Notes under the pieces: generated by a model
What the model saw: only the letters and a program-made list of their open reading frames with translations
Database searches by the model: none
Told to the model about the DNA's origin: nothing
Origin: Eledone cirrhosa
Lineage: Eukaryota
Assembly (NCBI GenBank): GCA_964016885.1
Contig: OZ024744.1
Span: 6,448,001-6,512,000 of the forward strand
DNA length: 64,000 nucleotides
Direction of reading: 5' to 3'
Translations under genes and position numbers: made by a program
Shown: positions 1,113-47,794 of the stretch, one piece after another
How positions within the stretch are numbered: position 1 is the first letter of the stretch
Layout: each line of letters begins with the position of its first letter

Positions 1113-1142
1113 ACATACATACATAAATACATACATATATAC

Positions 1143-2050
1143 ATATCACCAGGATATTAATGGAAAAGCAACGATCATCAGAGAAGCATTTTCCTGTCCT
1201 AGGGTTAAAAACCCCAGGAACGACAAAATATATGACCTCACTCCAACTAATACAGGTCTAAAAGGTTGTGAAAGTGACCCGTAAATACATTGGTGTATAG
1301 TGAAGGCGGGAAATCGTAGACTCGCCGTCTATAGCTCGCCACTAAAAAAAGATTTTTAGTAACTAAATATAACGACAAATGTGTATCTCTACATATGGAG
1401 ATTATTGAGAAAGGTTAATATATATCTAAGGGTACAATGTACCCCCGGAAATATATAGTGTGTCTATGATTTAAGGTGGTTCTATGGTAATAATTTGATA
1501 TACCAGAACATAATATCAGGATAAGCAGAACAAGTAAAATTCAACCAATTTTTCAAAATAAATCAAAATTAATATACAATTAAAATTAATCAAAATTAAA
1601 AAATATAATATAAATATTTACCTATTCAAATGGCCCTAACTGTACAGTTTCACGGTGCAAAACATTAAATATCACCAGGATATTAATGGAAAAGCAATGG
1701 CGAGCTATAGACGGCGAGTCTACGATATCCCGCCTTCACTATACACCAATGTATTTACGGGTCACTTTCACGACCTTTTAGACCTGTATTAGTTGGAGTG
1801 AGCTCATATATTTTGTCGTTCCTGGGGTTTTTAACCCTAGGACAGGAAAATACTTCTCTGATGATCGTTGCTTTTCCATTAATATCCTGGTGATATTTAA
1901 TGTTTTGCACCGTGAAACTGTACAGTTAGGGCCATTTGAATAGGTAAATATTTATATTATATTTTTTAATTTTGATTAATTTAATTGTATATTAATTTTG
2001 ATTTATTTTGAAAAATTGGTTGAATTTTACTTGTTCTGCTTATCCTGATA
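1143..2050. mobile_element. Non-coding HHR element A (526-nt unit): minus-strand copy longer than one unit (1143-1697) plus inverted plus-strand arm (1698-2050)
   Basis: atatcaccaggatattaatggaaaagcaa recurs at 1143 and 1669. 1698-2050 is the reverse complement of 1143-1340 joined to 1514-1697. Confidence 0.75.
1848..1937 (+). ncRNA. Type-I hammerhead ribozyme (canonical core)
   Basis: CTGATGA (1858-1864), long stem II cattaa-tatc/gata-tttaatg, GAAAC-TGTACA-GTT (palindromic stem III), weak stem I ttct/aggg. Confidence 0.7.
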
Positions 2051-2087
2051 CATATATACATATATACATTTATTTGTATTTGTGTTT

Positions 2088-2467: not shown

Positions 2468-5400
2468 TGTCATCAAGGTAAATAAGGAGTCCATCTACCC
2501 CAGTTCCAGAACAAACTTTCTAGATAGACTGCCAACCAAACCTAACAGAACCTTTCTTATACACTATTAGATGGACGTTCAGTCCCTTCAGTTCTTCCGT
2601 CTTTGATGGATTTTGTTTTCTATCGTGCAGCCTGTCCATAAATCCCTTTTCTCACTAAGCATGCTTTGTTGGGTTGTCAGTTTAGTCTGCAACGATCCGA
2701 TCATGTGAAATGTATTGGGTTACATTTTATTAGTAGCACTTGAGTGCGTCTTGACACAAATATGTTTATTTGTATATATATCCCATTAATTCCAATTACT
2801 TTCGTCTTCTTGCCAACGTTAATGTTTTGTCTCTCATCCCTTACTCCACTGGATAGCGTTATGGCTTATGTCAGACGCTGTGACCCCAGGTGTACCAGCA
2901 GTGCTGTTGGCAGGGGTAGAAACTTCCAAAGTCCATCTCAACGGCTAAAGACCCTGGAGTTCTGTCTTTCATTTGTATTTTGATTTTTTAAAAATACTTT
3001 TTTATGGTTTCCCCTTTAAAAATTGTTTTTCATTTTACCTTGTTTTCCTTCCGTCTTATCTTCTCTTTGTTAATTTTTAAATGTATACTAGCAAATGGCC
3101 CCCGTCCATTGGACGGTGTTAATTCTTGGTAGGACTGCAGTCTTAATGGTGAAATTCCGTTTTGTCGATGTTTAACATGGAGGATAATTTTACGTGATCA
3201 ACTCTTTCAATAAAAAATGAGACGGTATTCAGAAAGAGCATGTTTTATTTACAGATATCTGTCATTAAAATGTGAAAATAGAGAAATATCGGAAATAGAA
3301 AATATCGTTTGGAATGTCGTTTAATTGACTGAATGGTGAAGAATCGGTACAAAAAGCTTAGACGACAGTTCGGTTGACATGAAGGCAATCTGTAAGAAAC
3401 TACATGTTTAATTGAATTATGAAATAACCTGGGGCATATGGAATGCTGTCCATTGAAATGAAAAATGGTTGATTTCATCAATGGGCATTTGTTGAAAGAG
3501 TAACGTTACCTATTGTGAAAAGTAAGTAATCGCAATAAGGACCAACCTGAAGGGGCTTTCAAGTTCACGGAAAAACTATTGGAGGGCTGCCTTGTAAACC
3601 ACATTTTTTGTAAATCTTCCGGGAGCGTGGTAAAAGAGATTGGCCGAGTTTCCAACTCTTGAACATCCCACATACAGTTGGCCGTGTGAAAAGCATGGCG
3701 TACTGATGTCCAGCCCAACCACTTTTAGTGACTGCCCCTGGGCTTTGTTAATTGTTATTGCAAAACTTAATCGAATGGGGAATTGGATTCTTTTCATCGG
3801 AAAGACACAGTCAGTTGGAATAAGTGGAACTCGGGAAATAAAAACAGAGTCGCCAGCGTCTTTTCCCGTAATGATTGTAGCGTCGAGAACGTCATCCAAC
3901 ATTTGCGTTATAACCAAGCGTGTGCCATTGCAAAGCCGAGGAGGTTCCAAGTTTCTCAAGAGTATGATGGGACTTCCAAATCTTAGGCAGAGTTTATGCG
4001 GTGGCATTCCCGATGGCTCTTGTGAGTTTAAAAACTCTGTTGGATAAAACGTTACTTGCGTCGGATCCGTAATCGAATCCATCGAAGCATAACATCGCTC
4101 TTGGGAAGGAAGTTGACGAAGCAGACATGTGTTAAGAGCTTGTACGGTGGAATTTGTAGGAGCTAAGATGGCCCTTTCACACATCCATTGATGACTGACG
4201 TAATTTGTTGAGAGGTCGGGGTAAACTCTTGTGCAAATATCCTCAGGGCTGGAGACGTAGTTACCGATGGTACTTATGTCAACCAAACCGTTTACGTCGA
4301 TTGGTAAGTTCCCATTACAAACATCCAATAACTTTGAAGTATAGTAATTGTCACCGTCTTGTTAGTGGAGAATCGATCGCATGTTGATGGTTAACTTTCC
4401 CAACTGGACGAAGCGCCAAAGTTGAGAATGTTTAATGCAAGCATCTATTTCATCAACTGTTTGGCCTTTTGGGATGATGGGAAGAGTTTGACGAAAGTCC
4501 CCAGCAAGAAGCAGAACGGCGCCACCGAACGGTTTAGAATTGGAGCGCAGGTCATGTAGCGTTGTATTGATTACATCAAGTGCTCTTGTTGGACATTGTT
4601 TCCTCGTCCCAGACAATCAATTTGCATTTTTGAAAGACAGCAGCCTCATCAGAATTCTTCTTTATATTGGTGGTCGAATTTTCAACATGACTGATGTTAA
4701 GGGGAAGCTTAAATGTTGAATGGACTGTTCTGCCGCCGTCTAGCACTGTTGCTGCTATTCCTGAAGACGCTATTGCAATGGCAATCTGTCCATGTTGGCG
4801 AACTTTGGCAAGAAGGAGGTTGAGGAGAATTGTCTTTCCTGTACCATCTGGCGCATCAAGGAAGTGGCTACCACCGTTGGTGTCTTCAAGCATGGTCAAA
4901 ACAAAAGTATAGACATCAGCTTGTTCAAGATTCAAAAGTTCTTCTCTTTCTTGAACATAGGACAGAAGCTTGGCAGCACCGTAGCATGTCTCCCTTAGTA
5001 GGGGGCGGTTACAAACAGCCTCATTTTCTCTTTTAGGGGATTCCATATAGTAGTTCTTCAAGGGACGGCCACCCATTTACAAAAGTATATCTTCTAGAAA
5101 TATGAGACCGCAATTGTACATTTCATGTGTAAACTGTAAATTCATGTCTGTGGACGCAAAGCGAGATTGCATTAGGATGTCCAAGCACAGGCTGTCACGA
5201 TATTTATCCCAGAAAGACTGTGGATTCCCAAGACTGCAGTATACCAGCATAACGGCGAAAATCTTACGAAGAGCAATTGGTGACTGCAACATTGATGCTT
5301 CATGGAGGGCGTGGTCATAGTGGTCATCATTGTCGAGAAGACCTAATTTGGAGCAGGCCTCTTTAAATGTTGAACAAATATGGCCATTGACGGTACGAAG

Positions 5401-6773
5401 GTCTTCAAAGGAAGTTGGACTTTTGACAACGTGCATTAGAAGACGAAGGTGAAAACATTCTGAATTGAGCGGGTGAACTGTGTACACTCTGGAGAGGGCA
5501 TCAGACTCACGCATCGAAGCATCTCTTTGTGAAATGCGTCCTCGCTTTCTTCTTTGCCAACAGCGGGAAGATTTATTCCACGTGTATAATGTAGACAACT
5601 CCGCATAAAGAAGTGTTCTGTTAAGAGAGTCAGAAGTACAAAGTTCAAAGAATCCGGTAAGGGTCGTTCTTCGGGGTTGTCTTGCACAGTCAAGCATATT
5701 TTCTTGGTTAAAATACACCCGTTGACCATTCTCCAAATGAACGCTGAGGTTCACGTTCATGGATCGGAAAACGGAATATGCGCCAAAATGCTTCGTTAGA
5801 AGAGATGTAGCGTCCAGTTTGGAAAAATGTGACTTCATCTGTGGCGGCATCAGGGTTATCGGTCTTAGCCAACTCAATAACTGCTCGATCGGCTCCCTTA
5901 TGAATATACTTGCAGATGTATTGGATTGATTTTACGGAGTTGCAGAATTCAACATTAATGTGGGCTGGAAACATTTTACAAAGCACCTTGTTATGTGGTA
6001 CAACGCATCGGTTGTCGATATTGAAATCTTGACCACCAACCATTGTTATAGTTGCCGTATGTCCACCCTCCTGTGGTGCCCAGCGACGGTATAAAGGGTA
6101 GCCATCATCACCAGTTTTGGTTTCATGAATAAGTTTACGTGGGTAACGCTTTGTACATTTCCCATTATCTATACATGCAGATTTTGGATTTAGGTGGCCA
6201 CACTGTCCATGGATCATGTTGGTTTTTATAATTTGAAAAAGGACAGGGTCTTCTTGGGGATTTGGCAATTTAGTACTTATAACGGAATCAACATCAGTTG
6301 ACATGAGCTTTTTTTGAAGACAAAGGAGAATATGGGCATGTGGGAGTCCTCCTTTCTGCCATTCTACGGTGTACATGAAACACCTTACTGGTCCAAAATA
6401 TTGTCCGTATTTTATAACATCCATCATTTTCATAAGTTTCAGGTGAAACACTATAGATGTGATATCATGCCTGTGTGAAGGATTTTGGCCATGAAGTAAG
6501 TGAGACTGGATGTCAAACCATTTTGGATTACATGTGAAGGTGATGAAAAGATCAGGACGGGCCATAATGGCGGACGTAGGTGAGAGCAACATGCATTTTT
6601 TCATGCATGTAACGGGGGCCTCCAGTGTATGACGATGGCAGAATGACAGAAAGCCCAACATCCGAAGCAATAACCTAATCATTTCGATTGATTTCGTCAC
6701 GTAGATTGTCGTATTCTTCTGAACGCAGTTCCTTTTGATCGTGTCTTATCCATTGGAGGCGTTCAGTGTCGAT

Positions 6774-6854
6774 CTGGAAAAGGAAGAAATTGTTGTGGTA
6801 AATATTGAGTGAACTGGCTAAGGAAATTTCTGAACGAAATCATGAAATAGTTAC
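6774..6854 (-). other. 81-nt GT-AG intron in the Helitron 1 Rep region
   Basis: aag|GTAACT...ttcttccttttcCAG|atc. Removal joins VDIFAK to IDTERLQWIRHDQKELRSEEY, a conserved Helitron motif. Confidence 0.8.
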
Positions 6855-7879
6855 CTTAGCAAATATGTCTACACAGTATTGATTGAGGAGCATCCGTGTT
6901 CCATGCAGAATGTTGGTATTGTTCTTGCGAACCATAAGCCGAAATGCATAAAATTCCATTTGTGAAATGGTTTTACGTGGTTGAAGATACATTAAAGTTA
7001 CCGGATTACACTTTGGCAAGTCAATGCGGTAGCCATCGTCGCCAAAGGGGAACAGTAATGGATATTGGAGGGCATTATATGCAGGATGAAGTTCATTTAT
7101 TTTTTGAAGACGCGAGTCCTGCCATTCAAGAACAATACCATGGTTTGAAGCACTCTCATTAGGACTTGTTATAAGCACCGCAACTTCATCGGTTTGGGGT
7201 CTGTTAAAGGAACCCCGATGCTGCCCTGGTGGAGCGTTGTCACCTCGAATGACAACCTTGACTTGATTGGTGTTAGCATCTCTACGCTGAAAAGCAGTTT
7301 TGAAAATGGCGACGTAGGGGTTTATGGTATGAAGCATATATTGAAGGGGCTGCAGAAGAAAATGTATTGTTCCTTTAGCAACTGAAGCTCTTCGTGCAGT
7401 TTCTTCAGGTCCGTTCCCCATAAAGTAAATCTGGAGAAAACTGTGTTCATCGCCATCTTGTGGAATAATGGAGCCAATTTGATGGTAAATTTGACCTTGC
7501 ACTTTGAATGTGGGCATATAATTTCCATGTTCTATTGGTGTATGACCAAAGCTTGTCATTTGGAAAGCCGAATTGTAGGCTCTTATATTTCTAAGAAAGT
7601 GTTTAGAATCAGGGTGGTCTCCAAGCAGCAGAAAATTCAAAGGTTCGGCACCGACTTGTAAATGAGGCAATCTAACCGTTCCATTGGAGAAGCATATACC
7701 GGTAGATTCTGCTGGCCACCCCATTTCGTTACAGCGGACGCAAACAGTTGACATGCTACCAATGATGACATGTAGTCCTCTTGGAGGCTGTAATGAAAAG
7801 CCTTTTTAGACCAGTAACAGGAAGAAACCATCGGAAAGACATGAGAACGCATTTTCCGTTGAGAATCAGCCGCAATCCT

Positions 7880-8190
7880 TGTTGCCCTTTGGTCAACAGT
7901 CTCTAAAGCACGGCTATTTGAAGTAGAAGCAGCATTGCGAGCACGCCGGAGTTCTGCTTGTTCAGCTTTCTGTAATGCTCTGATGTTCAAAGTAGAGGCA
8001 GCATTGTGAGCACGCCGGAGTTCTGCTTGTTCAGCAGTCAGTAATGCTCTGGCCTTCGAAGTAGAAGTAGCATTGCGAGCAAGCCGGAATTCTGCTTGTT
8101 CAGTTGTCTGTAATTCTCTGGTAATCAAAGTAGAAGCAGCATTGCGAGCACGCCGTAGCATACATTGTTCTTCTGTCTCGCTTGCGCGCA
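7880..8190 (-). repeat. 60-bp (20-aa) coding tandem repeats in the Helitron 1 N-terminus
   Basis: EQAELRRARNAASTxxxRAL-type units about five times. Confidence 0.85.
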
Positions 8191-8396
8191 AAGAACGCAA
8201 AGCAAAAGCTTATCTTGTTTTTCTTCCAATGTGACTCTTGCTTTCTCGAGGCATTTTATGGAAAATCTGTAATTGAATAAATCTGAAACAAATTAAATCA
8301 AAGAAATTTACCTGGTTGCTGTTTATAGGACTTCTAATGAAGATTTTGAATGCAAAGTCCCATAAGGATTAGAAAAATGGCGATATATATATATAA

Positions 8397-10887: not shown

Positions 10888-11650
10888 ATATAAGTATGTA
10901 CACGTACATACATATATGTATACCGACGTACAGTAGTATGTATATATATATATATACATACATGCACACATATATATATGCACGTATGGATTCACCGAAC
11001 ATTTATTATAATGCTCGGTGTGTTTGTAAACAAACATCCCGTATTAAGCCGTAGTGTCTAGCAACCACCATACGTGCATATATATATGTGTGCATGTATG
11101 TATATATATATATACATACTACTGTACGTCGGTATACATATATGTATGTACGTGTACATACTTATATTTAAGTAACAGCCGTACTAAGAGTGAGAAATGA
11201 AATATCGTTTCATTTTTTCCGTTTATCGTTTTCGGTGCACCCGGCCAATTAACCCACTCGATATGCAAATTGGGCTACTCAGCCGTTAATATGCATAAGG
11301 TAAGTATATACGTTCAACAATCTGGCAGGAAGGTATACGTTGCTGACGATAGCTAACAAGCTTGAAACTAGTACAGCGTTCCTTTGTCAGTGTTGAACAA
11401 ACGAGCAACGGTGGTTGCTAGACACTACGGCTTAATACGGGATGTTTGTTTACAAACACACCGAGCATTATAATAAATGTTCGGTGAATCCATACGTGCA
11501 TATATATATATGTGTGCATGTATGTATATATATATATACATACTACTGTACGTCGGTATACATATATGTATGTACGTGTACATACTTATATTTAAGTAAC
11601 AGCCGTACTAAGAGTGGGAAATGAAATATCGTTTCATTTTTTCCGTTTAT
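10888..11650 (+). mobile_element. Non-coding HHR element C (422-nt unit), 1.4 units (11068-11650) plus inverted arm 10888-11069
   Basis: catacgtgcatata recurs at 11069 and 11491. The arm is the reverse complement of about 11410-11590. Confidence 0.85.
11322..11390 (+). ncRNA. Minimal type-I hammerhead ribozyme
   Basis: cgttg-CTGACGA-t-agct-aaca-agct-t-GAAAC-TA-GTA-cagcg, with extended stem I ctggcagg/cctttgtcag. Confidence 0.85.
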
Positions 11651-14912: not shown

Positions 14913-17880
14913 CTAGGGCGGGTAAAATTCCCGAGATCCATGGACGAGTTCTCTCCAGCGGTCTCTGTCCCTCATTATCGATGCCATGTCCTGCGTCTCT
15001 AACAGACCAGTGTCTGTCCTTAGGCTATCAACATACGTTAACCTTGGTCTTCCTCTTCCAGTGTGTCCATGTAGAGGATCCCACAGGAGCACTGAGTGCA
15101 ATGTCAAATCTGGATGTCGGTGAGCATGTCCAGCTAACCTCGATCTCCTCTGTGTCACTTTTGAGCTGACTTTTGGGAGGCTCCCGTACAGCTCTGAGTT
15201 TTTCATCCTCAGTGTATACTGATTAATGTTCAGAGCCATCCTCAGCATTCTCGTGTAGCATCCATCCACCATCTGAGTGAGTTTCTTGGTCAGTGTCCAA
15301 GTCTCAGACCTGTACAGCAGCACAGACTCCACTGTAACAATGAAGAGGCGGATTTTCAGGTCTTTACGAAAGTCCGACTTCCACACCGATCTCAAGCTGT
15401 GGCACGCCGCCCAGGCTTTTCTCTTCCTCTCAACCACATCATCTTCCAAATACAGGAAGTCCTCAACCAATTCTAGCGGCTTCCCGCCTACATTAGTGAA
15501 CCCCTCTGGCTTCTCAACATTCTCTACCAGATATTTTGTTTTAGTCTCATTCATTCTCAGCCTCACACTCACCGACACAGTCTCAACCTCCTGCATCAAA
15601 TCCTCTGTCTTCTTCACTGTATTTGTCACCAAAACTATGTTCAGCAAAACTATGTTCAGCATCCGATATCTTTTTCGCCTTAACTCTCCTGCTCTGAGCC
15701 GGTGCTACAGTAAAGCCAGAGTCCTTGTGTTTCTCCAGTGCAAGGCGCATACAATAGTCCACTACGATGATAAAAAGGCAGGGAGCCAATGTATCTCCCT
15801 GGAGCACTCCAGCCAGTATCTCAAAGAACTTTGTCATCCCATCAGGTGTAATGACTTGGGCTTTGGTGTTGGTGTAGAGCAGTGATATCAGGCCCACTAT
15901 CTTCTTGGGGATTCCATAACCCTGTAAGATCTTCATCAGGCAGTGATGGTCCACAGAATCAAAGGCCTTCCTAAAATCAATGAAAACCATGACCGCAGGA
16001 CGACACTTTGTTCTAGCTCCCTCTAATATCCTCCTCAGCATCAAGATGTGACTGGTGGTTGATCTTCCTTTTCTGAAGCCGTTCTGGCTGTCCCTGAGCT
16101 TCTTCTCCATCTCAGGCTGGATCCTGTTAAGAATCATCCTGTTGAGGGTCTTTGCCACAAGTGACGTCAGTTGCTGTTAGAGAGATCTGCCTTCTTTGGC
16201 ACTGGGACGATGTTACTGATCCTCCACTGATTCGGAGCAACTCCTTTCTCCAGTGCCTGGTTACAGAACCCCAGGATGATTCCATCAAAATCACACCTCT
16301 TCATCACCTCTGATGCCACTCCATCTTCTCCACGAGCCTTGCCCTCCTTGATCCTCTTCTTGGCTCTCCGAAGCTCCTCTCTGGCGAAGGGCTCTGTTTC
16401 AATATCCAGTTCCTCAAACAGCCGCCTGATCTCCCCAGTGCTCTGGGCTGTGGAGGGTGGCTCTCCTAGTAGGGTCCTAAAATGGTCTAGCCATTTCCTC
16501 TTCCTATCCTCGGGCCCTGTTCCCTGGATCTGACTCGAACACCTTCTCTTCCTCCCTGTGATCTCGTTGATGATCATCCAGCTCTCCTTACATCCAGACC
16601 TGTCAACAGCTCTCTCCACACTTCTGATCTTCTCTATCAGTGCCTCCTCTCTGGCCTCAGTGTAAGCGGTACAGAGTTCTTGCCTCATCACCTCAACAAT
16701 CTCCACCCTCTCCTCCCTAGGATCAGCATATTATTGATCCTTGGCAGCTTTCAGGTGTTCTCTGGCTGCACACACTTTGGGCTTTGCAGAGCTGACGTGC
16801 TTCCCTTTGTTCTTTTTCCTCGGCACCAGGGTTTCACTTGCTTCCGCCACTGCATTGGTGAAGTGCCCGTACCTCCTCGTCACACTCTCCCCAGTCCATC
16901 CAATCTCTCTCTCCTCTGACTCTCCACACAGAGCACTAAACCTGTTTCTCACTTCCACTGTGAACCTCTCCTGTAGCTTATCATCTTCCTTGAAAGCTCC
17001 CCAGTCATAGATTGCTCTCCGGGGCTGAGCCTTGCTCTTTCTTAAGCTCACCCGGACCTCATACATAACAAGCCGGTGGTCACTACCCAGTGTACTGAAA
17101 TAGTTGTATGGTTCTGTGTTCTGAACACTATTCTGCCACTTTTTCCTCACCAGAATGAAATCAATCTGGGACTTGGACAGGTGCATATCTGAGATGTAGG
17201 TCCACATCTTCCCCAGATTCTTCCTAAACCTTAGGTTGGTCGCTATCAAGTTTGCCTCCAGCAGGGTGTCTCTCAGTAGTCTTCCATTTCGGTTGGTGTT
17301 ATGGAATTACCAGCAAGGATCTTCACTGCCCTCCTTACTCAGATGTGCACTGAAGTCCCCCAAAACAAGCAGGATATTGTGTGCCTGAGTGGTGTTGACA
17401 GCTCTACACACCTCCTCATGGAACTCTTCCGCACTCACATCACTGTCTCCCTCGTTTGGACTATAGGCTGAGATGACTGTCAGTCTTGGGTTTCCATTGA
17501 AGGTCACCCTCAACACTCGCAGGGAGACAGACATTATTTCCCTCACCAACAGATTGGTTTTTGCACTGAACACAAAACCCACTCCTCCCACTGCAGCATT
17601 GGTCATGTTCCTCACTGCCGATGTGGTGATGAGCTGACTCCTCTTCCCAATCATCACACTTCTCACGGGCTCATCGTGTAGGATCCTGTGTTCTTGGATC
17701 GCAAGTATCTGTATACCACTCTCCTCGAACAGATGTCCCAACTCCTCTCTCTTCTCCAGCGTCCGAATAGTCCTCACATTCAAAGTGACCATTTTGATGG
17801 TTCTTCTGCAGGAAAAAACTGCATTCTTTATATTTGTCTCAGAGACAGCTGATCCATCATCCAGAGGCCATCCCTGTCAT
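14913..17880 (-). mobile_element. Near full-length RTE-clade LINE (APE endonuclease + RT), frameshifted
   Basis: TLNVRT, IQEHR, LGDFSAH, IDFIL and SDHRLV (APE). QNGFRKGRST, FIDFRKAFDSV and GVLQGDTLAP (RT). GRPRLTY at the C-terminus. Confidence 0.92.
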
Positions 17881-19389: not shown

Positions 19390-21560
<2,171 letters not shown>

Positions 21561-23510: not shown

Positions 23511-23695
23511 TTATATAGTAAGGTGTATTATTGGTTGTGTCATTCGGTCCAATAAACTTTTGTTAGCAATATTAAATTCTCCACGCATTTGTATATCTCC
23601 AATTCCATTTATGGGAACAGCTAGATGATCTAAAACGGAGTATTTGTATCAAAATAAAGATCCGAAGGCATGGTATACATTTCCAATCATTTTAA

Positions 23696-23769
23696 TCACG
23701 ACCCATGTTTCAATAAGGGATAGATCGATCGTGCGGCCATGATCGATTATCACTGATCTCGTCAGGTGA
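23696..23769 (-). ncRNA. Type-I hammerhead in pLTR
   Basis: tcac-CTGACGA...atcgatc/gatcgat...GAAAC-atgg-GTC-gtga. Confidence 0.7.
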
Positions 23770-26090
23770 AAAGGAATTGTCTTCAAATCCTTGATATGAG
23801 GGAGAAAATTTAACGATATTCACTCACTAATGTTTTGTCTCCCATATGAAGATTAAGCAACAAAAACACGTCGTCTGCTATCGTCTTCAGTTACGGTTAT
23901 AAAACTATCAAGTCTCTATCTCTCAATAGCTGTAAAAGACGCTGGACGGGTCTAATCTCAACATCAAATCTGTTGAATTACAGTCGGTCATAGTTATTGT
24001 GAGTGTGTATACACACACACTCACACACACCGACGCGAGGTCAAAGAAAAAATAGTATATACCAACACAGTATTCACCGAAAGTTAGGTTACAAAACAAC
24101 AAATGTTATATTGGTCAAATCTAAATTTGACGATGTGAATTGGAAAAATTAGGTCAACCGCAATTCTATACACACGCAAGTAAATTCGGTTCAATGTTCT
24201 GCTATACGTGTATCGATTGAATTGTAACACCGTATCGTCTAAAAAGTGTATGTTTTGGTATATACACATCCATGTGAAGAGCAAGTAGTCAGCTCATATC
24301 GAACTCTGTATGTGCCGTTGTCCCATTGAGAATCTGAGTCCCCAAATCTGTGCCTGCAAGCAACCACCATGTAGGCCACCAAGGAGCTCTGAGTAGGGTT
24401 GGGTATTTAAGTTAATGTGTGAGTATGTGCGTTTTCCCGTCATATGGGCCCTAGGGCTTTTAAGATAGGTGTTTGAGTGGTGGAGGTGTGTTACCCAACA
24501 CAAAAATAAAAATAAAATAAAATAAAATAAAATATAAACAGAATAGCCAAAACCCCGAGGATGTGTGTAAGCCAATTAAAGTGTTTAAGTAGTATGTCCA
24601 ATCAGTAACCGTGAGCATACCATGGTTAGATGATCACGGATCAAAACCTAGTGTAGTGTTCAATTGATAGGATCGTGACCAGTCATAACTGTGGGAACTC
24701 CGTGTCTAAAGAAACCGGGTACTGTGTGTAGAATTATGTATAAAGAGCGTAATCGTTCTTAACTGAGTGTGTAATATGTCTAACTATTTACTAACCTAGA
24801 GAACTCTATGGTTAGGGTATTCTAAAGTAATGGTGAGTGCGCGTAATCGGTCTTAACTGAGTGTGTAATCATTCTAACTATTTACTAACTAGGTATTCTA
24901 AAGTAGTGGTAAATGTGCACTCAGCTGTGAGAACTCAGTGGAAGCAAACCGAGTACCGTTTGTAAGTGCGCAAACGATCTTAGCTGTCTACTACCTGAGT
25001 GTGTGATTGTCTGGGTTTTTTTTTGCTAATTGAGAGAACTCTATGGCTAAGGTAAAAAGGGAGGAGTTTGTGGTAGGTTACTTTCCAAATATCCTGCGGA
25101 AGGTTTTCTAGATTCTATGTTGGCAGTTGCTGAAAAGATCCGCTCTCTTCTTCTCTTTATTAATAGGGGGCCGCCTCTAATAATATTAATGGTTTCAGCT
25201 ATACATAAATTACAAACGTCCGTGCTGCCATTATATGGACGGGCTGAGCAAATTATGGACCAGGATAATGAGTGCTCTATATTCTGTTGTTTAAGCTTCC
25301 AGACTAATTCAGAAAGCGCCGTGCTATTTTTTTATATCTAATATATTAAAGGTATGGCGGTGATTATACCATCTATCCTTAAATTCAGTGGCAGTTGCCC
25401 CAACATACCTGAAGGTTCTATGTAAAGTGGAGACCTTACAGTCGTAGACTATGTTTTTGGTGAGGCATTTCCCAGCCATGGGGCAAGTGGCGGTTTCCTG
25501 CAATTACATTTTCTGTTATCGACCTGGGTAGTTCCTGGGGAACCACGTACCTCTGGTGTCGGTTCTCAGTTCTTGTCTGCTCTATGGGTAAATTCCCAGG
25601 GGTTGGGCGTGACCCGACTCGCCTCACGTGTATGAGTCCGTTGATCCATAGAGCTGCCATTAGTTCTGCTATGTCTCATTTGGGCTGTCCTAAGTCTACT
25701 ATAATTCATCTAAGCTATATTCTGAGATATATTACTGGTTGTGGAGTAGGACAGCTTGATGGTATTCCTATTGAATATGTTACAGTATCTGTGTGATCTA
25801 GGGAAACATTATTTTTTCTTTGACCTCGCGACGGTGTGTGTGAGTGTATACACACTCACACTAACTGAGACCGACTGTAATTCAACAGATTTGATGTTGA
25901 GATTAGACCCGTCCAGCGTCTTTTACAGCTATTGAGAGATAGAGACTTGATAGTTTTATGACCGTAACTGAAGACGATAGCAGACGGCGTATTTTGCCTG
26001 CTTAATCTTCATATGGGTGATAAAACTCTAGTGAGTGAACATCGTTAAATATTTTCTCCCCCATATCAAGGAATTGAAGACAATTCCTTT

Positions 26091-26164
26091 TCATCTGACG
26101 AGATCAGTGATAATCGATCATGGCCACACGATCGATCTATCTCTTATTGAAACATGTGTCATGA
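26091..26164 (+). ncRNA. Type-I hammerhead in inverted pLTR
   Basis: tcat-CTGACGA...GAAAC-ATGT-GTC-atga. Confidence 0.75.
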
Positions 26165-26337
26165 TTAAAATGATTGAAAATGTATACCATGCCTTCGGAT
26201 CTTTATTTTGATATATATATATGTATATATATGTATGAATGAAGTAATTCCGTAGGAAAAGTCCAGGAAAAAAGAGTGCTCTATGTAAGCAACAGAGCTT
26301 AATTATTATTATGTAATAAACAACATAAGGCAATTAT

Positions 26338-26395
26338 TCCATTTACCAGTGGTTTCTTAAAAGCAAAAGGTTTTGCTTTCAATCCTCAGAATGAA
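26338..26395 (-). ncRNA. Type-I hammerhead (mirror of 34251-34308)
   Basis: ttcatt-CTGAGGA-ttgaaagcaaaa/ttttgcttttaa-GAAAC-cactg-GTA-aatgga. Confidence 0.85.
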
Positions 26396-26530
26396 AAAAT
26401 CCTGGTTTGTTTATTGAATTTGGATCTTAAAACCAAAAAAAGGCAAGCTATATGAAAGTGAGGCTGGAGAAGGAAGAAGGAAAGGAAAAATAAAAATAAA
26501 ATAAGACTACCCATACGACCACACATACAC

Positions 26531-26611
<81 letters not shown>

Positions 26612-26741
26612 CATACACACACGCGCATACACACACACGTTATTCCGGGTTGAATCGGAGGCAGCCACAGTAAGCAAGGCACTCAGTACACCGCAGAGCA
26701 TGAAGGTTATAATACAGTTGAGAATCTGTGTATGTATACAA

Positions 26742-26772
<31 letters not shown>

Positions 26773-26774
26773 TA

Positions 26775-26808
<34 letters not shown>

Positions 26809-27186
26809 TGCGTATGCGCGCACGCACGCACGCGTATACAAATATAAATATATTTCCCCCATACACATGTATGTGCGTGCATGCGCGCATACGCGCAGGG
26901 TATGTTCTGTTGAAAGTGTCTCGTGAATTTATGGCTACAGTTGTATAGATTATACTTAGAAATTGTCTACAGAATTCCCTAAACCTTCGTCAATTTACTA
27001 GAACCTTTAAGAATTTAGCTTTTAAGGAATCTCCCCTCCTCCAAAACTATCTACCATGACTGACCCCATACTAATCTTACAGACACCTGTAAGCTAAAGA
27101 GAAAGCTAATGATAAGGATTGGCTCCAATCTGAATACAGAAATCTGTCTGCCTCTGTTCCTCTAAGAACAAACATATACAAACATT

Positions 27187-27277
<91 letters not shown>

Positions 27278-27455
27278 CTACACACACACACGCATATATA
27301 TATATACACACACACATATACACACACACACATACACACACACACATACACACGCACACACACATATACACACGCATATATATACACATACATATATATA
27401 CATGTATGCGCGTGTGTACACGCATACACATACGTACACATAGCCATACCCACAC

Positions 27456-27532
<77 letters not shown>

Positions 27533-27985
27533 CATACATTCACACAATCAAGCATATATACACACGTACATGCATACACATACATAAATGCACTCCTCTA
27601 CATATTCACACACGCAAATAAATATTAGAAAAAAAAATATATATATATTATAAAAATATATAAGGCAGCAAACTGGACAGACAAGCGTGGTAAGAAACAC
27701 ACACAAAAGCACATATACATACGCACGAGATAGTCAACGCATTCACACACTCTCACACATAAAAAAATTCCAAATACAAATAAATAACCGCATACATACG
27801 CATACATGCATAACCACGCACAAGTGTACAATCTATACACACACACATGTGTATACAACTATATGCACACACACACATATATGCATACATAAACACACAT
27901 ATATATACATAAATACAAACGTACACACACACATATATATACACGTACACATACACGCACAACAGAACACAAACACACACACACG

Positions 27986-28017
<32 letters not shown>

Positions 28018-28084
28018 CATACAATTATCAATATATACACACGCACATATGTACACACACACATATATACACACACACATATAT

Positions 28085-28157
<73 letters not shown>

Positions 28158-28326
28158 CATGCATATACACATATACACACATACACAACCACGCACACAC
28201 ACATGCATACGCATACACACACGTATATGCGTGTGTGTATGTAAAACTCAATCTTAGATAAATCATAAGGACCTTACATATACGTATATATAGTAGTAAA
28301 GTATTAAAGCAACATAAGGCAATTAT

Positions 28327-28386
28327 TCCATTTACCAAGGGTTTCTTAAAAGCAAAAAAAATGTTCCTACAATCTTCAGGATGAGA
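28327..28386 (-). ncRNA. Type-I hammerhead, partly degenerate (mirror of 32375-32435)
   Basis: CTGAAGA...GAAAC-ccttg-GTA-aatgga. Confidence 0.6.
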
Positions 28387-28517
28387 GAAACCTGGCTTAT
28401 CCACACATACACATATATATACACACACACAAATACATACATATATAAATACATACACACAGGCACACACACACCTACGTATAAACATATATACATACAC
28501 ACATACACACACATATC

Positions 28518-28595
<78 letters not shown>

Positions 28596-28817
28596 TACAC
28601 ACAAATATACACACACATACACATAGGTATGTGGAGGGCAAGGCAAAAAGAATATATGTGGGGGGGGGGGGGCGCATAGGAGAAGGTAAAATATAAGGGG
28701 AGGTAAGGGAGAAACAAATATAAAATAAATGTAAGTATACAAGAGTACAGAACGTAGAAACAGTAAAATAAAAATAAAAATAAAAACCGTAGCAGAAGTA
28801 AAGAGCGGGAGAGGAGT

Positions 28818-29827
28818 TCAAGGCGGTTGATTTCTCATAGGAGTGTCAATCCAGTTACAGATCAGGTGCGGTCTCAGATGAGGACAGCATCTGAAGATCT
28901 CAGTCTTTGAATTAAGGCAAGCGGAAGTGTCTCTCAAGTTTAGCAAAATCCTATACTTTTCTGTGGTACACAAAGAACAATTCTTTGTGCCCCTTTGGTA
29001 CTCCCTCGAATGGTCTAATATAGACCAATCAATAGAGTACGGGATGTTACTATCCTTGAGTTCCCACACCTTACTTGCGAGGGCCGTTGATGTTCGTTTA
29101 TCGGAGTGCTTAAAAGAAGCGACATGTGAGTAAAATCTGGTTTTAAACCTGTCCTGGGTCATACCGACATATCGCTCACTCCTGGCTGGCTGGTTGTTGA
29201 TTACTGGTGTTATCGTAGCCTCATAAACGACAGATTTAGTGTTACATCTACCCTGCAATGGGCGTTCGTCCGGCTTCCTGCAACTGCATCCTGGATTTAT
29301 TCTCGTCCGGTTTGAGCTGGTGATTTTGGACTTCATAGATGGGCAACAAGAGTAGCTGATCTTGACTACGTTCCTATTAAATATCTTATAGTATCTATGA
29401 TTAGGAGGAAAATGTTTGTCTAATAGTTCAAGGAATTTCCTTCCTACATTAGTTTTGACAGTTAGAGAGAAGGGGGATGTGAACCAAATAATCTTCCTTT
29501 TCCTGTTATTGTGGTTAGTTTTAGGGGGGGGGGAGTAGGTAAATAAGACATTTTTTTCTGTAAAACCGCTGTTCTTAAGGGCTTTATTATAATAAGGGGC
29601 GGCTTTATTAAAAATGTCTATAGACGAAGATAAGGTAGAAATCCTACGGCTAATGTTAGGAATAAGATTATTAAAAACTATAGGGGGATGGCAAGACTCT
29701 TTGTGTATATACCTAAGATTTTCGTTAGGTTTATGGTAGGGTTTAAAAGAGGCAGTAAGTAAATCAAGATTAATATCAAGAAAGTTAGCATTAGTAAGGT
29801 TCGTATCTATAGTAATTTTAAGGTTAA
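28818..29827 (-). pseudogene. Inverted copy of the Naiad RT thumb + GIY-YIG region
   Basis: 339-aa ORF nearly identical to the C-terminal half of 29850-31972, lacking the insert and the frameshift. Confidence 0.9.
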
Positions 29828-29849
29828 AATCGAACAAGTCGTTAAAAGA

Positions 29850-31972
29850 ATGAGATGGAAGGCAATGGTTTACGACGGACTATTCAGGGCTGATACTAAA
29901 GATCGTTTTGACATCAAATCTCGTAAATATCCACCTAGAATTAAAGACATGGCCAGCTTCGAATTAGACCTCGTTAATCTAATTAATGATATCAAGTTTC
30001 GTAAGTACAATAATAACTTTCAAACCAAACTTTCTAACGGTATTTCTAATTTTAGAAATTCTACAAACACTTTCGTTCTTTCTGATAAAACTAAAAACCT
30101 CTTTGAAGTTAATAGTACTTTGTATAACCAACTTTTAACTAATAGTATTACCAATAAATATCAATTAACTAATAATAATACCTACAATACTATCAATAAA
30201 GAAGCTAAAGAACTAGCTAGTTCTTTACAAATAGATAACCGGATTGAAAGTTTAGCTAAGCGTAAAGAATCTATTACCCTTAAAGACCATAAATTGGACT
30301 TTACTAATCGACCTAGTTGTAGATTGATTAACCCGGCTAAATCCGAGGTTGGCCTTGTAAGTAAGAATATCTTAAGAAAAATAATTCTCCAAATCAGAAC
30401 TAACACTGACCTATCACAGTGGCTAAATACTTCCTCTGTTATTTCTTGGTTCAATAATATACAAGGTAAAAATAAGTGTAGATTTACCCAGTTTGATATT
30501 GTCGATTTTTACCCTTCTATTACTGTTTCCTTATTAACTAAGGTCTTAGATTTTGCAAGACCCTCCATTAATATTTCTAAATTAGAAGAAGACATTATCT
30601 TCCATGCTAGAAAAACTTTACTTTTTACTAATGATAATATTTGGGTTAAAAAGTCAAACCCTGAAAACTCTTTTGATGTCGCAATGGGTTCATATGACAG
30701 TGCGGATGTGTGTGACGTAGTTGGATTGTTCCTTCTCCACACCCTCAAAGAGAAATTTCCGTCCCATAATATCGGTTTATACCGTGATGACGGATTAGCA
30801 GTTTCTCATACCACCAACGGCCATGACCTTGATAAATTCCGTAAAGATTTAATCAATACTTTTGCTAATCTTAACCTTAAAATTACTATAGATACGAACC
30901 TTACTAATGCTAACTTTCTTGATATTAATCTTGATTTACTTACTGCCTCTTTTAAACCCTACCATAAACCTAACGAAAATCTTAGGTATATACACAAAGA
31001 GTCTTGCCATCCCCCTATAGTTTTTAATAATCTTATTCCTAACATTAGCCGTAGGATTTCTACCTTATCTTCGTCTATAGACATTTTTAATAAAGAACAA
31101 TTCTTTGTGCCCCTTTGGTACTCCCTCGAATGGTCTAATATAGAACAATCAATAGAGTACGGGATGTTACTATCCTTGAGTTCCCACACCTTACCTTATT
31201 ATAATAAAGCCCTTAAGAACAGCGGTTTTACAGAAAAAAATTCTTATTTACCTACTCCCCACCCCCTAAAACTAACCACAATAACAGGAAAAGGAAGATT
31301 ATTTGGTTCACATCCCCCTTCTCTCTAACTGTCAAAACTAATGTAGGAAGGAAATTCCTTGAACTATTAGACAAACATTTTCCTCCTAATCATAGATACT
31401 ATAAGATATTTAATAGGAACGTAGTCAAGATCAGCTACTCTTGTTGCCCATCTATGAAGTCCAAAATCACCAGCTCAAACCGGACGAGAATAAATCCAGG
31501 ATGCAGTTGCAGGAAGCCGGACGAATGCCCATTGCAGGGTAGATGTAACACTAAATCTGTCGTTTATGAGGCTACGATAACACCAGTAATCAACAACCAG
31601 CCAGCCAGGAGTGAGCGATATGTCGGTATGACCCAGGACAGGTTTAAAACCAGATTTTACTCACATGTCGCTTCTTTTAAGCACTCCGATAAACGAACAT
31701 CAACGGCCCTCGCAAGTAAGGTGTGGGAACTCAAGGATAGTAACATCCCGTACTCTATTGATTGGTCTATATTAGACCATTCGAGGGAGTACCAAAGGGG
31801 CACAAAGAATTGTTCTTTGTGTACCACAGAAAAGTATAGGATTTTGCTAAACTTGAGAGACACTTCCGCTTGCCTTAATTCAAAGACTGAGATCTTCAGA
31901 TGCTGTCCTCATCTGAGACCGCACCTGATCTGTAACTGGATTGACACTCCTATGAGAAATCAACCGCCTTGA
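29850..31972 (+). pseudogene. Naiad-type PLE RT + GIY-YIG ORF (5'-truncated, frameshift near 31240)
   Basis: CRLINPAKSEVG, FDIVDFYPSI, AMGSYDSA and GLYRDDGLA (RT). CSCRKPDECPLQGRC linker. VVYEA...YVGMTQDRFKTRFYSH (GIY-YIG). CSLCTTE. Confidence 0.92.
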
Positions 31973-32191
31973 ACTCCTCTCCCGCTCTTTACTTCTGCTA
32001 CGGTTTTTATTTTTATTTTTATTTTACTGTTTCTACGTTCTGTACTCTTGTATACTTACATTTATTTTATATTTGTTTCTCCCTTACCTCCCCTTATATT
32101 TTACCTTCTCCTATGCACCCCCCCCCCACATATATTCTTTTTGCCTTGCCCTCCACATACCTATGTGTATGTGTGTGTATATTTGTGTGTA

Positions 32192-32243
<52 letters not shown>

Positions 32244-32374
32244 GATATGTGTGTGTATGTGTGTATGTATATATGTTTATACGTAGGTTTGTGTGTGCCT
32301 GTGTGTATGTATTTATATATGTATGTATTTGTGTGTGTGTATATATATGTGTATGTGTGGATAAGCCAGGTTTC

Positions 32375-32435
32375 TCTCATCCTGAAGATTGTAGGAACAT
32401 TTTTTTTTGCTTTTAAGAAACCCTTGGTAAATGGA
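32375..32435 (+). ncRNA. Type-I hammerhead, partly degenerate, first in the Naiad 3' UTR
   Basis: tctcatc-CTGAAGA-ttgtagg...cttttaa-GAAAC-ccttg-GTA-aatgga. Confidence 0.6.
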
Positions 32436-32610
32436 ATAATTGCCTTATGTTGCTTTAATACTTTACTACTATATATACGTATATGTAAGGTCCTTATGAT
32501 TTATCTAAGATTGAGTTTTACATACACACACGCATATACGTGTGTGTATGCGTATGCATGTGTGCGTGCGTGGTTGTGTATGTGTGTATATGTGTATATG
32601 CATGTATATG

Positions 32611-32671
<61 letters not shown>

Positions 32672-33272
32672 ATATATGTGTGTGTGTACATATGTGCGTG
32701 TGTATATATTGATAATTGTATGTGTGTGTGTGTCTGTGTGTATATGTGTGTGCGTGTGTGTTTGTGTTCTGTTGTGCGTGTTTATGATATATACGTATTT
32801 GTATGTGTATAATTGTTTAGCTATGTATGTATATGTGTGGATATATATGTTTGTGTATGTGTACGTGTATATATATGTGTGTGTGTACGTTTGTATTTAT
32901 GTATATATATGTGTGTTTATGTATGCATATATGTGTGTGTGTGCATATAGTTGTATACACATGTGTCTGTGTATAGATTGTACACTTGTGCGTGGTTATG
33001 CATGTATGCGTATGTATGCGGTTATGTATTTGTATTTGGAATTGTTTTATGTGTGAGAGTGTGTGAATGCGTTGACTATTTCGTGCGTATGTATATGTGC
33101 TTTTGTGTGTGTTTCTTACCACGCTTGTCTGTCCAGTTTGCTGCCTTATATATTTTTATAATATATATATATTTTTTTTTCTAATATTTATTTGCGTGTG
33201 TGAATATGTAGAGGAGTGCATTTATGTATGTGTATGCATGTACGTGTGTATATATGCTTGTTTGTGTGAATG

Positions 33273-33316
<44 letters not shown>

Positions 33317-33894
33317 GGTATGGCTATGTGTACGTATGTGTATGCGTGTACACACGCGCATACATGTATATATATATGTGTATATATATGCGTGTGTATA
33401 TGTGTGTGTGCATGTGTATGTGTGTGTATATATGCATGTGTGTGTGTGTATGTGTGTGTGTGTATATATATATATGTATGCGTGTGTGTGTGTAGATATG
33501 TGTGGGGGGGTGTATGTATGAATGTTTGTATATGTTTGTTCTTAGAGGAACAGAGGCAGACAGATTTCTGTATTCAGATTGGAGCCAATCCTTATCATTA
33601 GCTTTCTCTTTAGCTTACAGGTGTCTGTAAGATTAGTATGGGGTCAGTCATGGTAGATAGTTTTGGAGGAGGGGTGATTCCTTAAAAGCTAAATTCTTAA
33701 AGGTTCTAGTAAATTGACGAAGGTTTAGGGAATTCTGTAGACAATTTCTAAGTATAATCTATACAACTGTAGCCATACATTCACGAGACACTTTCAACAG
33801 AACATACCCTGCGCGTATGCGCGCATGCACGCACACACATGTGTATGGGGGAAATATATTTATATTTGTATACGCGTGCGTGCGCGCATACGCA

Positions 33895-33951
<57 letters not shown>

Positions 33952-34250
33952 GTTTGTATACATACACAGATTCTCATCTGTATAATAACCTTCATGCTCT
34001 GCGGTGTACTGAGTGCCTTGCTTACTGTGGCTGCCTCCGATTCAACCCGGAATAACGTGTGTGTGTATGCGCGTGTGTGTATGTACATGTTTGTGTGTGT
34101 GTGTGTGTGTGTTTTCGTGTATGTGTGGTTGTATGTGTAGTCTTATTTTATTTTTATTTTTCCTTTCCTTCTTCCTTCTCCAGCCTCACTTTCATATAGC
34201 TTGCCTTTTTTGTTTTTAAGATACAAATTCAATAAACAAACCAGGATTTT

Positions 34251-34308
34251 TTCATTCTGAGGATTGAAAGCAAAACCTTTTGCTTTTAAGAAACCACTGG
34301 TAAATGGA
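34251..34308 (+). ncRNA. Type-I hammerhead ribozyme at the Naiad 3' end
   Basis: 6-bp stem I, 12-bp stem II, canonical CTGAGGA/GAAA/GTA. Confidence 0.87.
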
Positions 34309-34339
34309 ATAATTGCCTTATGTTGTTTATTACATAATA

Positions 34340-34370
<31 letters not shown>

Positions 34371-34720: not shown

Positions 34721-37700
34721 TTTTAAAGAGAAAACAACGTAGCACGAAGCCCCCAAAACATTTATTTTTAATCATAAGAAGTATGTGTTGTTCGATTAAA
34801 AACGGTAAAATGTTATGGCATATGAAAGGTGAATGAGTGTAAAAGTGTGACGTTGACGCGGTGAAGCTCCAAACGCGAACTATGCCACAAGGAAGTCAGC
34901 AGCCCAAAAGTGAGTCACATGGAATTTATGACAATAATGTAGGATGTTTGGCAATTCAGGGACTGAAGTCGTTGCGGGATGACGGAGATAATGTATGACG
35001 ACTTTGAGTGAAAGGTACAAATGAGGGGGGTGCCATACGTTTGCTACAGTAGAAACATGTAAATTGTTCGTTATGCATTGCGTATATGTAGGCATTCTAA
35101 TGATTTATTTAGTTTGAAATGCTTACCATTCTGTATAGCTGTGGCAGCCAATAGAAACTGTGACGTTGCTTTCCTTAGACTGATTGCAGTGACATAGACC
35201 AAACATGAAGGACGCTCAAAATTCCCCAACACAAATTCTGCACCAACCTCGATTGCAAAAGTAACAGAGAATAACGAATAGCGATTATTACGCCAAAAGA
35301 AAAATGCTGAAGCAACTTCTATTGCACGAGATGCAGGAAACGAAACACAACGTTCGATGCGACAACAAATAAATGATGAGGCAACTGCTGCTGCTTGAGG
35401 TGTAGAAAACGATTCTCAACCCTCACTACGACAGAAAACAAATATTGAGGCAACGTCTATTGCAGGAGATGCAGAGAACCACAGCGTTCATTACGGCGGC
35501 ATAGAAATGCTGCGGCAACCTCCGCAGCTCGTGCTGCATCAACCGAAACACAGCGTCAACTGCGGCAGCAAAGAAGTGTGAGTCAACGTCTTCTCTTTGA
35601 ACTGTATCAACCGAAACACAGCGTCAACTGCAGCAGCAAAGACATGTGAATCAACGTCTGCTGCATGCGCTGGCGAATCCATGGAAAACTGGCTCAACCA
35701 ACCAGGGGGGAACGTGCATTTCAATACATTGTAGCTCAAAGTGGTCACAAGGTTTACAGTCGAAAAGTATGGTGCTATGAATTTCAAAAAGGCAGTATGT
35801 CTACAATTTGGTAATTATTGAAAGCAGCGAGGTATTTGATTGTTAGAAGACGGTTTGTGTCGCAGTGTTGATTACAGAACTTCTTGGTACACAATGTTTG
35901 TGGGTTTACCGTTTGGAGCAAATGCATAAAGGTTTCTTTTGCTTCCCACTCTGGAACATCCAACGTATAGCTGACCGTGTGAAAAGCATGGCTCTTCTAG
36001 GTTTATTCCCGCGACGGACAATGTTTGCCCCTGAGACTTATTTATCGTCATAGCGAAACTACAACGAACTGGAAACTGGAGCCTCCTAAATGCAGAGGGG
36101 ATCTCTGATGTTGACGGACAAAGGGGAATCCTTGGGATTAAAACATTTTCCCACTTTCCACACCCCGAGAGACTCGTCGCCTCGATCAAGTTTTGCGTTA
36201 GTTTATTTACTGTAAGGCAGAGATATGGTTGGTGTAGATTCCTCAAAAGCATAATTGGGCATCCTTGCTTAAGTTCCAATCGATGAGATGGCAACACGGT
36301 GGGGTTCAATGAGTTAACAAACTCAATTGGGTAGTTAATGGGGTCTTTGACTGTATCGATGGACTTGTATGTACACGAAGCTGTAGGAAGAGACTTAAGC
36401 CGTTGATTTTGTTGACAGCCTCATTTTTCAGAGCCAGTATTGCCCTTTCGCACAGCCAGTTTGGAATTTGGTAGTTAGTGCTCATCTCAGGGAATACTGC
36501 ATCTGTCAAGTCGTCAGCACTGTCGACTAAAGTGCAGACCGGTTTGGGGGAGGTTTTTTCCTCTTCATCAAGTGGCACTTTGCCGTTCCCTACTGTCAAT
36601 AGGTTGATAGCAAACTCTGATGACACTTGGTCACCAAGCATCCGAGCTCTCATGTTCGTAGAGAGCGTTAATGTTGTGACATATCGCCAAAGCGGAGATG
36701 AATTTAAGCATGCTCGAATAGCATCAGCCCTTGTTCCTTTGGGAATAACAGGGAGGGTTTGTCTAAATTCTCCGGATAAAAGGACAGTCACGCTTAAAGT
36801 CCGTCCAGTGCCTCCAAAGCTCGTTTATGAGCCATGGTACATTCGTCCCAAACTATAACTTCACACCTTTTAAGCAGTTCTGCCTTTTCTGATCCTTTGG
36901 TAATATTACCGCAGGGTGTGTCATTTGCTGTCATATTAAGGGGGCGTTTGAAGGCTGAATATTCTGTCCTGCCCCCAGGAAGCAAGGTTGTTGCAATACA
37001 GGAAGACACAACAGCAAGTGCTACGTGTCTGTGTTGTCGAACCTTGGCAAGAAGAAGCCGTATGACAAAAGTCTTCCCTGTGCCTCCAGGGGTGCCCAAG
37101 AAAAAGATTCCTGCCGTACGACGGTGGACACAGTCAGCAATAGTGTTATATGCTCGTTCCTGTTCCTTCAGCAGCATTGGTTCATGTTCAGTGACATATG
37201 TAGCCAAGCTGTCAGTGTCGTAGGATAGTTCCCGAAGTATTTCTGCGGAAATGATGTCGGAGCCTGTTCTGTTGGTTTGGGGCAGGTCATATGTCTGCAG
37301 TGCATTCCCACCCATTGCAGCTATCATATTTTCAATTTCAATAAGTGCTTTGTTGTAGATTTCATCTGTGAAGCCTACTTCCATGTCAGGAAGTTGTAAT
37401 TGTGCTTGATGTCTGAAGTCCTCAGAGAAGTCATCTCTGTACTTGATCCACAAGAAGGAAGGATCGGGCAATTCAAAAATCTACAGTAAGACAGCAAAAA
37501 GCTTCCTAAGGCTGTGTGGAATTTGTGAAACAACTGCTTCTGCCAAAGTGGCATCCCACTGAGCACCATCTTCCAGTAGTCCACGCCTGAGGCAGGCCTC
37601 TCTGTACGTGTCGTCGCAAATTTGGCCATCAACAGTTCTTAGGTGTTCAAAACTGGTTGGTCCTCTTACGTCATGGAGAAGCATACGCAGGTAGTAACAT

Positions 37701-47745: not shown

Positions 47746-47787
<42 letters not shown>

Positions 47788-47794
<7 letters not shown>

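Follow-up and report, generated by a model that had tools for sequence, protein, structure and literature searches.

Positions 1143-2050 of the 64,000-nt stretch of the Eledone cirrhosa genome analysed here (the window; contig OZ024744.1, positions 6,448,001 to 6,512,000) were identified, by sequence comparison, as a single two-armed insertion of a dispersed non-coding repeat with a unit of 526 nt. Each unit carries a type I hammerhead motif, and the repeat has those sequence features by which metazoan non-LTR retrozymes are defined. It was probably a Penelope-type reverse transcriptase (RT)/endonuclease that placed the two-armed insertion in its TA-rich target, copying what is likely to have been a one-unit circle of the hammerhead retrozyme.

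Anatomy of the window copy

Unit positions are numbered from U1, which corresponds to window position 1697, and are counted along the minus strand. The following features were assigned:

1131..1146, plus strand: left copy of the target-site duplication, 16 nt, TA/CA-rich (longest string common to both flanks)
1143..1697, minus strand: inverted (second-primed) arm, U1-526 followed by U1-29 (sequence comparison)
1143..1171, minus strand: second copy of the 29-nt terminal redundancy; first copy at 1669-1697
1175..1181, minus strand: CUGAUGA half of the hammerhead core in the inverted arm, U517-523 (sequence)
1638..1651, minus strand: GAAAC, palindromic stem III and GUU triplet in the inverted arm, U47-60 (sequence)
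1697..1698, no strand: head-to-head arm junction, U1 joined to U357 with zero gap (sequence comparison)
1698..2050, plus strand: primary arm, U357-526 followed by U1-184, stopping at the fixed 3' end of the family (sequence comparison, sampled insertions)
1848..1937, plus strand: contiguous type I hammerhead motif, CUGAUGA at 1858-1864 and GAAAC at 1914-1918 (sequence, covariation)
1938..2038, plus strand: predicted long hairpin directly after the ribozyme (fold prediction)
2048..2063, plus strand: right copy of the target-site duplication, its opening 3 nt overlapping the 3' end of the element

The primary arm measures 353 nt and the inverted arm 555 nt, whereby the two differ by four substitutions and one indel; the plus arm is identical to the unit (U357-526 and U1-184) at 349 of 354 positions. 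The left copy of the target-site duplication sits in low-complexity DNA and shares its final 4 nt with the end of the inverted arm, which reads ..TGATAT and hence is similar to the canonical 3' end of the family. A rare G>A exchange at 1852, found in this copy, disrupts one stem I pair of the hammerhead. Each arm possesses a single predicted cut site and neither strand carries two tandem ribozymes, so that the window copy would release no monomer and would represent a dead end. Two remnants are present at 1-330 and 693-1160, and the insertion is located directly at the end of the latter. Going by a motif, we take both to be the restriction-endonuclease-like end of R2/R4-type retrotransposons; a Pfam search of the remnant 693-1160 gave no match.

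In the initial annotation the minus strand from 1697 to 1143 was described as a 526-nt unit which repeats its beginning and carries the ribozyme halves at opposite ends. Both observations were reproduced, as the first and last 29 nt of the 555-nt run are identical, the starts of the repeats are spaced by 526 nt (32 nt are repeated if one mismatch is allowed) and the halves locate to U47-60 (GAAAC..GTT) and U517-523 (CTGATGA). The further statement that an intact ribozyme exists only at 1848-1937 holds true for the contiguous type I form, but not for the permuted 555-nt arm: all core elements are present there in permuted order and a forced hammerhead with a 440-nt loop I is possible, predicted to lie 8.8 kcal/mol above the best fold. 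The plus arm 1698-2050, taken for the inverted one, had to be reassigned as the primary arm, as it ends at the fixed 3' end of the family. Equally, the split hammerhead is no evidence in itself, U1 being just the 5' junction of the inverted arm, and the 5' ends of other copies are scattered all round the unit. The split ribozyme of the window copy is ordinary, the inverted arm beginning inside stem II by chance. The conclusion that a linear RNA with a single ribozyme cannot yield this order was confirmed, the template having more than one ribozyme pass as in a circle or multimer. The window copy alone does not require a circle, since a 710-nt linear RNA with two ribozymes suffices.

The 526-nt family and its sister families

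The genome (3.0 Gb in 1796 contigs) was found to contain 219 exact matches to a 27-nt ribozyme motif (reversed control, 0), 378 to the 3'-end motif of the family (control, 0) and 1270 to a 19-nt motif common to this family and its sister families (control, 0). The set of insertions picked by the 27-nt motif is biased to copies holding U42-68 and another set is biased to long copies; from the set picked by the 3'-end motif, 4 of 100 listed places were left out. Insertion counts were made after 24 of 119 loci had been removed as overlapping duplicates, together with L030 as a likely duplicate of L025.

Among the 94 insertions examined, 91 possess a fixed 3' end at U176-190 (exactly U185 in 83), i.e., 125 nt past the predicted cut and about 13 nt past the base of the predicted hairpin 1938..2038. 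A TA-type repeat flanks the 3' end in 90 of the 94, an inverted arm is present in eight, and the 5' ends are scattered. The copies are thus polar, with one fixed and one variable end, and by that criterion are without LTR organisation. The target duplication, 16 nt at the window copy, is unreadable where the target is pure (TA)n. Copy sizes mostly range from 0.3 to 2.3 units and reach 7.84; some copies consist of head-to-tail units with at least two complete ribozymes, and about a quarter, those exceeding 651 nt, contain two cut sites. A hard length limit near 1165 nt, assumed at one stage, was overturned by longer copies found later, and a pile-up of 5' ends at U66-110 was discarded as evidence, being confounded by TA microhomology and length-dependent drop-off. 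The longest ATG frame in an ORF scan of the unit comprises 10 amino acids on the ribozyme strand and 33 on the other strand, and no ORF joined to a retrozyme copy was found among the sampled copies.

Sister families with units of 481-488 nt are about 74% identical to the 526-nt unit over most of its length and share its architecture. One sister family came to light in three contig sets of one sample; the sister-family loci (L180-L209, L212-L242) go back to 108 exact matches of one motif. Two-armed insertions are far more frequent in the sister families and both arms can exceed one unit, examples being 729 + 742 nt and 548 + 1563 nt.

The hammerhead motif

The type I motif present in each unit comprises the core, three stems and covariation across families, and its predicted cut locates between window positions 1927 and 1928 (U60/61). 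Rfam scans of the window and of 1100-2060 gave no hammerhead family match, and the ribozyme region folded alone was no better than shuffles (z 0.33), findings for which a 40-nt stem II extension is the probable reason. Across 22 haplotypes from three families, 91% of the hammerhead cells are paired, as compared to 35-44% for slid pairing partners used as control. Two-sided changes occupy 31 cells against 13 in shuffles (reached in 0 of 500 shuffles); counted as pairs they amount to five, which is not above shuffles (283 of 500), and the rows are related. For stem III each of the three families has its own 8-nt palindrome, and the triplet is GUU or GUA; such palindromic stems agree with the dimer-capable type I ribozymes described in the accessible text of PMC4209133. 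Folding of the circularised 526-mer, proposed in the initial annotation, gave -131.6 kcal/mol (z -4.7 against 40 shuffles, antisense strand z -2.2), and the active ribozyme fold is predicted to cost 8.8 kcal/mol within the circularised unit. Comparison across the sister families supports the hammerhead, for which self-cleavage is predicted.

Two start sites and junctions at the predicted cut

Altogether 48 head-to-head junctions were analysed (counts include L138, L248 and L231). In the 526-nt family the second arms end 215-240 nt past the cut in 27 of 33 junctions, the primary site lying at +125, while in the sister families they end 190-205 nt past the cut in 15 of 15 (primary site at +92 to +96; one pair is a duplicate). 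A second preferred start is hence located about 100 nt 3' of the first. The apex of the predicted hairpin following the ribozyme is 33 nt shorter in the sister families, and the shift between families equals this 33-nt indel, which suggests that the start sites track sequence or structure. The window copy is among the six exceptions of the 33, as its second arm ends at U29 with TGATAT as at the main site.

Three primary arms (L053, L289 and L264) start at the predicted cut if 2-3 nt of microhomology are allowed for, as likewise does the complex event L269/L270, and a sister-family arm (L258) begins at +2; four others begin 3-9 nt upstream of the cut. The three to five junctions at the cut correspond to p ~0.02, calculated post hoc. 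Such junctions are at most a hint of in vivo cleavage and would fit a re-cut circle as well as partly cut linear RNA.

The template of reverse transcription

When loci were selected solely by their 3' end (94 in all), 95 ends could be resolved, of which at least 87 extend beyond the cut site and 27 are longer than 651 nt, i.e., the cut site was passed twice. A cut linear monomer is therefore not the usual template. The monomer could still account for such ends if the RT, on reaching the 5' end, jumped back to the 3' end of this monomer or on to that of a different one, and mosaic insertions as well as cDNAs stopping at the cut site would be in line with this; however, only eight of the 95 ends lie at or short of the first crossing, and intact stem III and triplet precede 285 of 293 distinct post-cut sequences, so that the jumps would need to be base-precise, which renders monomer jumping improbable. 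The longest insertion, L300:2942-7298 (G000:C3:352307441-352311797), comprises 7.84 units, ends 3' at the canonical site, has an inverted arm and is flanked by TA. Within its seven full units 60 minor alleles occur in one unit and seven in two or more, and neighbouring units are no closer than average (21.0 versus 20.2 differences). This star-like divergence indicates that the units began identical, and the length of the insertion excludes a fixed two-repeat template.

Precisely such a template, namely a coding Penelope-like element (PLE) reduced by deletion to a fixed repeat-insert-repeat form, was named in the initial annotation as the reading which would overturn its own. For the window copy alone it fits, as a 710-nt RNA (U1-526 and U1-184) covers both arms, and Xenopus retrozymes were described to resemble PLE terminal repeats in the accessible part of bioRxiv 2026.07.22.740005. 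Yet the fixed 710-nt template is excluded, solely by other copies, above all by the 7.84-unit insertion but also by several of 2.0-2.3 units, none of which a two-repeat template can yield; further, the whole unit, beyond the terminal repeat, is conserved (74%) with a sister family and no ORF is joined to any sampled copy. The deletion derivative is accordingly held to be very improbable, while a distant origin of the 526-nt unit from a PLE end is possible. Still less credit is given to a DNA-level fold-back, a MITE or an assembly artefact. The nested inverted repeats and low-complexity flanks would suit it, but the structure is polar, most copies are without terminal inverted repeats, a target duplication is present, the same two-arm geometry recurs at 48 junctions and the arms of the window copy are not identical.

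How variants are distributed over the repeats was analysed with 151 insertions (11 duplicates removed), 91 of which have doubly covered sites. Of 341 cases of variants carried by at least four insertions, 289 had the variant in every repeat of the insertion, as compared to 67 expected from random partners, leaving 52 discordant cases. Private variants were present in all repeats in 31 instances and in some in 97, whereby 13 of the 31 fall in nine of 58 single-arm insertions below two units; for a smaller insertion set 35 were seen against 0.4 expected by chance. None of 1830 insertion pairs shares two round-specific variants, and one such variant seemingly common to L055 and L115 turned out to be an alignment artefact. 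The simplest explanation for the homogeneity of repeats is a one-unit bottleneck in each generation, while gene conversion or assembly polishing could be other routes to it. In three arrays of 2.9-3.4 units the sharing of variants is nested, as local duplication would make it, and mosaics of two haplotypes were found in L039 (six sites), L019 and L053 (three each), for which template switching, heterodimer RNA or later conversion are alternatives.

Instead of a circle, the same enzyme may have used a linear multimer, transcribed from tandem copies and left uncut or cut only in part; the repeats of an insertion would then agree because their sources are young or converted. Long arrays (7.84 units) and mosaic insertions do exist, three or four primary arms begin at the predicted cut, two of them at about 526+125 nt, as would be expected with a cut 5' end, and the anole PLE was reported to use mainly uncut RNA in vitro (PMC11167929, accessible text). 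On the other hand, every subfamily variant has reached all repeats and no round-specific inheritance was seen. Because of the internal start and 5' truncation, daughters of a linear template can only be shorter than their mothers, and no daughters of the 7.84-unit insertion were seen: three variants of one of its units were matched in 12 of 1683 comparisons, and 11 of these matches (at U294/300/318/474) look like older-subfamily alleles. The linear multimer is thus considered unlikely, and from the pattern of variants the circle is favoured as template.

Penelope-like elements and other repeats

The insertions bear the signature of PLE insertion, namely a fixed internal 3' start, 5' truncation, partial tandems, an inverted arm and a microsatellite target. 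The 526-nt element is not an autonomous PLE, as no RT/GIY-YIG ORF occurs in the unit or joined to sampled copies. As to a coding partner, two young PLE families (30 loci each) were found to share no real sequence with the unit, i.e., neither a Neptune-like family with a 775-aa RT/GIY-YIG frame nor a PLE-like family with a 714-aa frame; weak AT-rich matches occurred in three and one loci, respectively, and the genome has many more PLE families. A pair of matches 2.8 kb apart proved to be a duplicated retrozyme insertion. A GIY-YIG fragment beside L254 was dismissed, being on the opposite strand with (TA)n in between, and other PLE fragments near copies were judged separate by coordinates only.

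The window itself holds further repeats. A broken Neptune-like PLE occupies 47787-58465 in about 3.2 head-to-tail copies, which are 98-99% alike and have a period of 3334 nt; its relatives elsewhere retain the intact 775-aa RT/GIY-YIG frame in many copies. At 26300-34350 a PLE-like element, relatives of which carry the 714-aa frame, occurs in inverted and partial copies; a hammerhead-like motif (CUGAAGA) follows the ORF end at a distance of about 440 nt. Two inverted repeat pairs of 400-490 nt (11104-11594 / 21064-21552 and 23647-24054 / 25810-26213) carry hammerhead-like cores at 11343 and 21313, and at 23765 and 26095, and are unrelated to the 526-nt unit. Two decayed elements (3576-8209, with a Pif1 helicase domain, and 35872-40421) are presumably Helitron-like, and a decayed LINE with an RT domain resides at 14913-17876.

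Relation to known systems

Like the metazoan non-LTR retrozymes described in the accessible parts of PMC7229834 and bioRxiv 10.64898/2026.07.22.740005, the 526-nt family consists of non-coding tandem units of low GC content with a type I hammerhead, is dispersed as monomers to multimers, has a long target duplication and is predicted to form a self-paired circle. The U.U mismatch at the base of helix II is found in the axolotl HHR_Amex2 as well, according to the same accessible literature. The unit is larger than the 170-400 nt given in PMC7229834, as far as accessible, but falls within the 51-972 bp range of the bioRxiv 10.64898/2026.07.22.740005 survey. Unlike those retrozymes, the family has a long stem II extension and occurs mostly as 0.3-2.3 units rather than as satellites, and fixed start sites, two-armed insertions and (TA)n targeting are not described in the accessible parts of both sources.

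From the accessible text of PMC8557442 and PMC11167929, 5' truncation, partial tandems, an inverted 5' copy, (TA)n bias and internal start sites are hallmarks of PLEs. Similar to EN+ PLEs (PMC8557442; PMC11167929; PMC4209133, each as far as accessible), the 526-nt family has an internal RT start downstream of the hammerhead, two start sites and a palindromic helix III; here the start sites are spaced by about 100 nt, which is about three times the 30-40-nt PLE 'tail' of PMC11167929. In contrast to EN+ PLEs the unit is without an RT or GIY-YIG ORF, and no sequence link to a coding element was found. In L1 twin priming the RNA is primed from both strands of the target, and the resulting cDNAs become joined head to head. 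The insertions described here resemble it in both-strand priming and head-to-head joining, but differ in that the second site is usually 3' of the first, the arms overlap in sequence and a poly(A) tail is lacking.

That PLEs copy RNA circles is a stated hypothesis for retrozymes (PMC7229834; bioRxiv 10.64898/2026.07.22.740005), and circles as the source of retrozyme spread and PLE partial tandems were proposed in 2014-2020 (PMC4209133, PMC7229834), in the parts of these sources that are accessible. Work with the anole PLE in vitro revealed that uncut linear RNA is used and that the ribozyme is dispensable (PMC11167929), and eight of nine Xenopus retrozyme dimers did not cut in vitro (bioRxiv 2026.07.22.740005), both likewise as given in the accessible text. 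A search for octopus hammerhead ribozymes and cephalopod retrozymes found no such family in the literature it covered, most subscription papers and supplements lying outside it; the main text of the Octopus vulgaris repeat annotation holds no mention of 'ribozyme' or 'retrozyme'. The circle model is thus an already published hypothesis, to which the 526-nt family, judged from genomic sequence, adds what appears to be unusually direct support.

Proposed mechanism and implications

Copies with two tandem ribozymes, possibly those above 651 nt, would be transcribed, self-cut and ligated into a circle. A nicked (TA)n strand would then prime at the fixed internal site, with copying proceeding through the joint for a variable distance, while the opposite target strand would prime at the second site, the two cDNAs finally being joined head to head. 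For the window copy, second priming is assumed to have occurred at the unusual site U29 followed by a 555-nt run, from which the 29-nt redundancy and the split ribozyme would result. We infer the transcription, cleavage, ligation and enzyme of this scheme.

More specifically, and only tentatively, it is suggested that a Penelope-type enzyme performs rolling copying of the ribozyme-made circle from two fixed internal sites, which are spaced by about 100 nt and each used by one strand of the target, whereby re-cutting by the hammerhead would sometimes end the cDNA and leave the cut-site junctions as a genomic fossil of self-cleavage in vivo. If this holds true, the circle model for the formation of retrozyme and PLE tandems would become a mapped, testable reaction. 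This young family renders the circle question testable, as its start sites are known exactly, a cut site is predicted, and a star-like 7.8-mer as well as haplotype rules are available; the 7.84-unit insertion is the most suitable single locus for testing the circle model.
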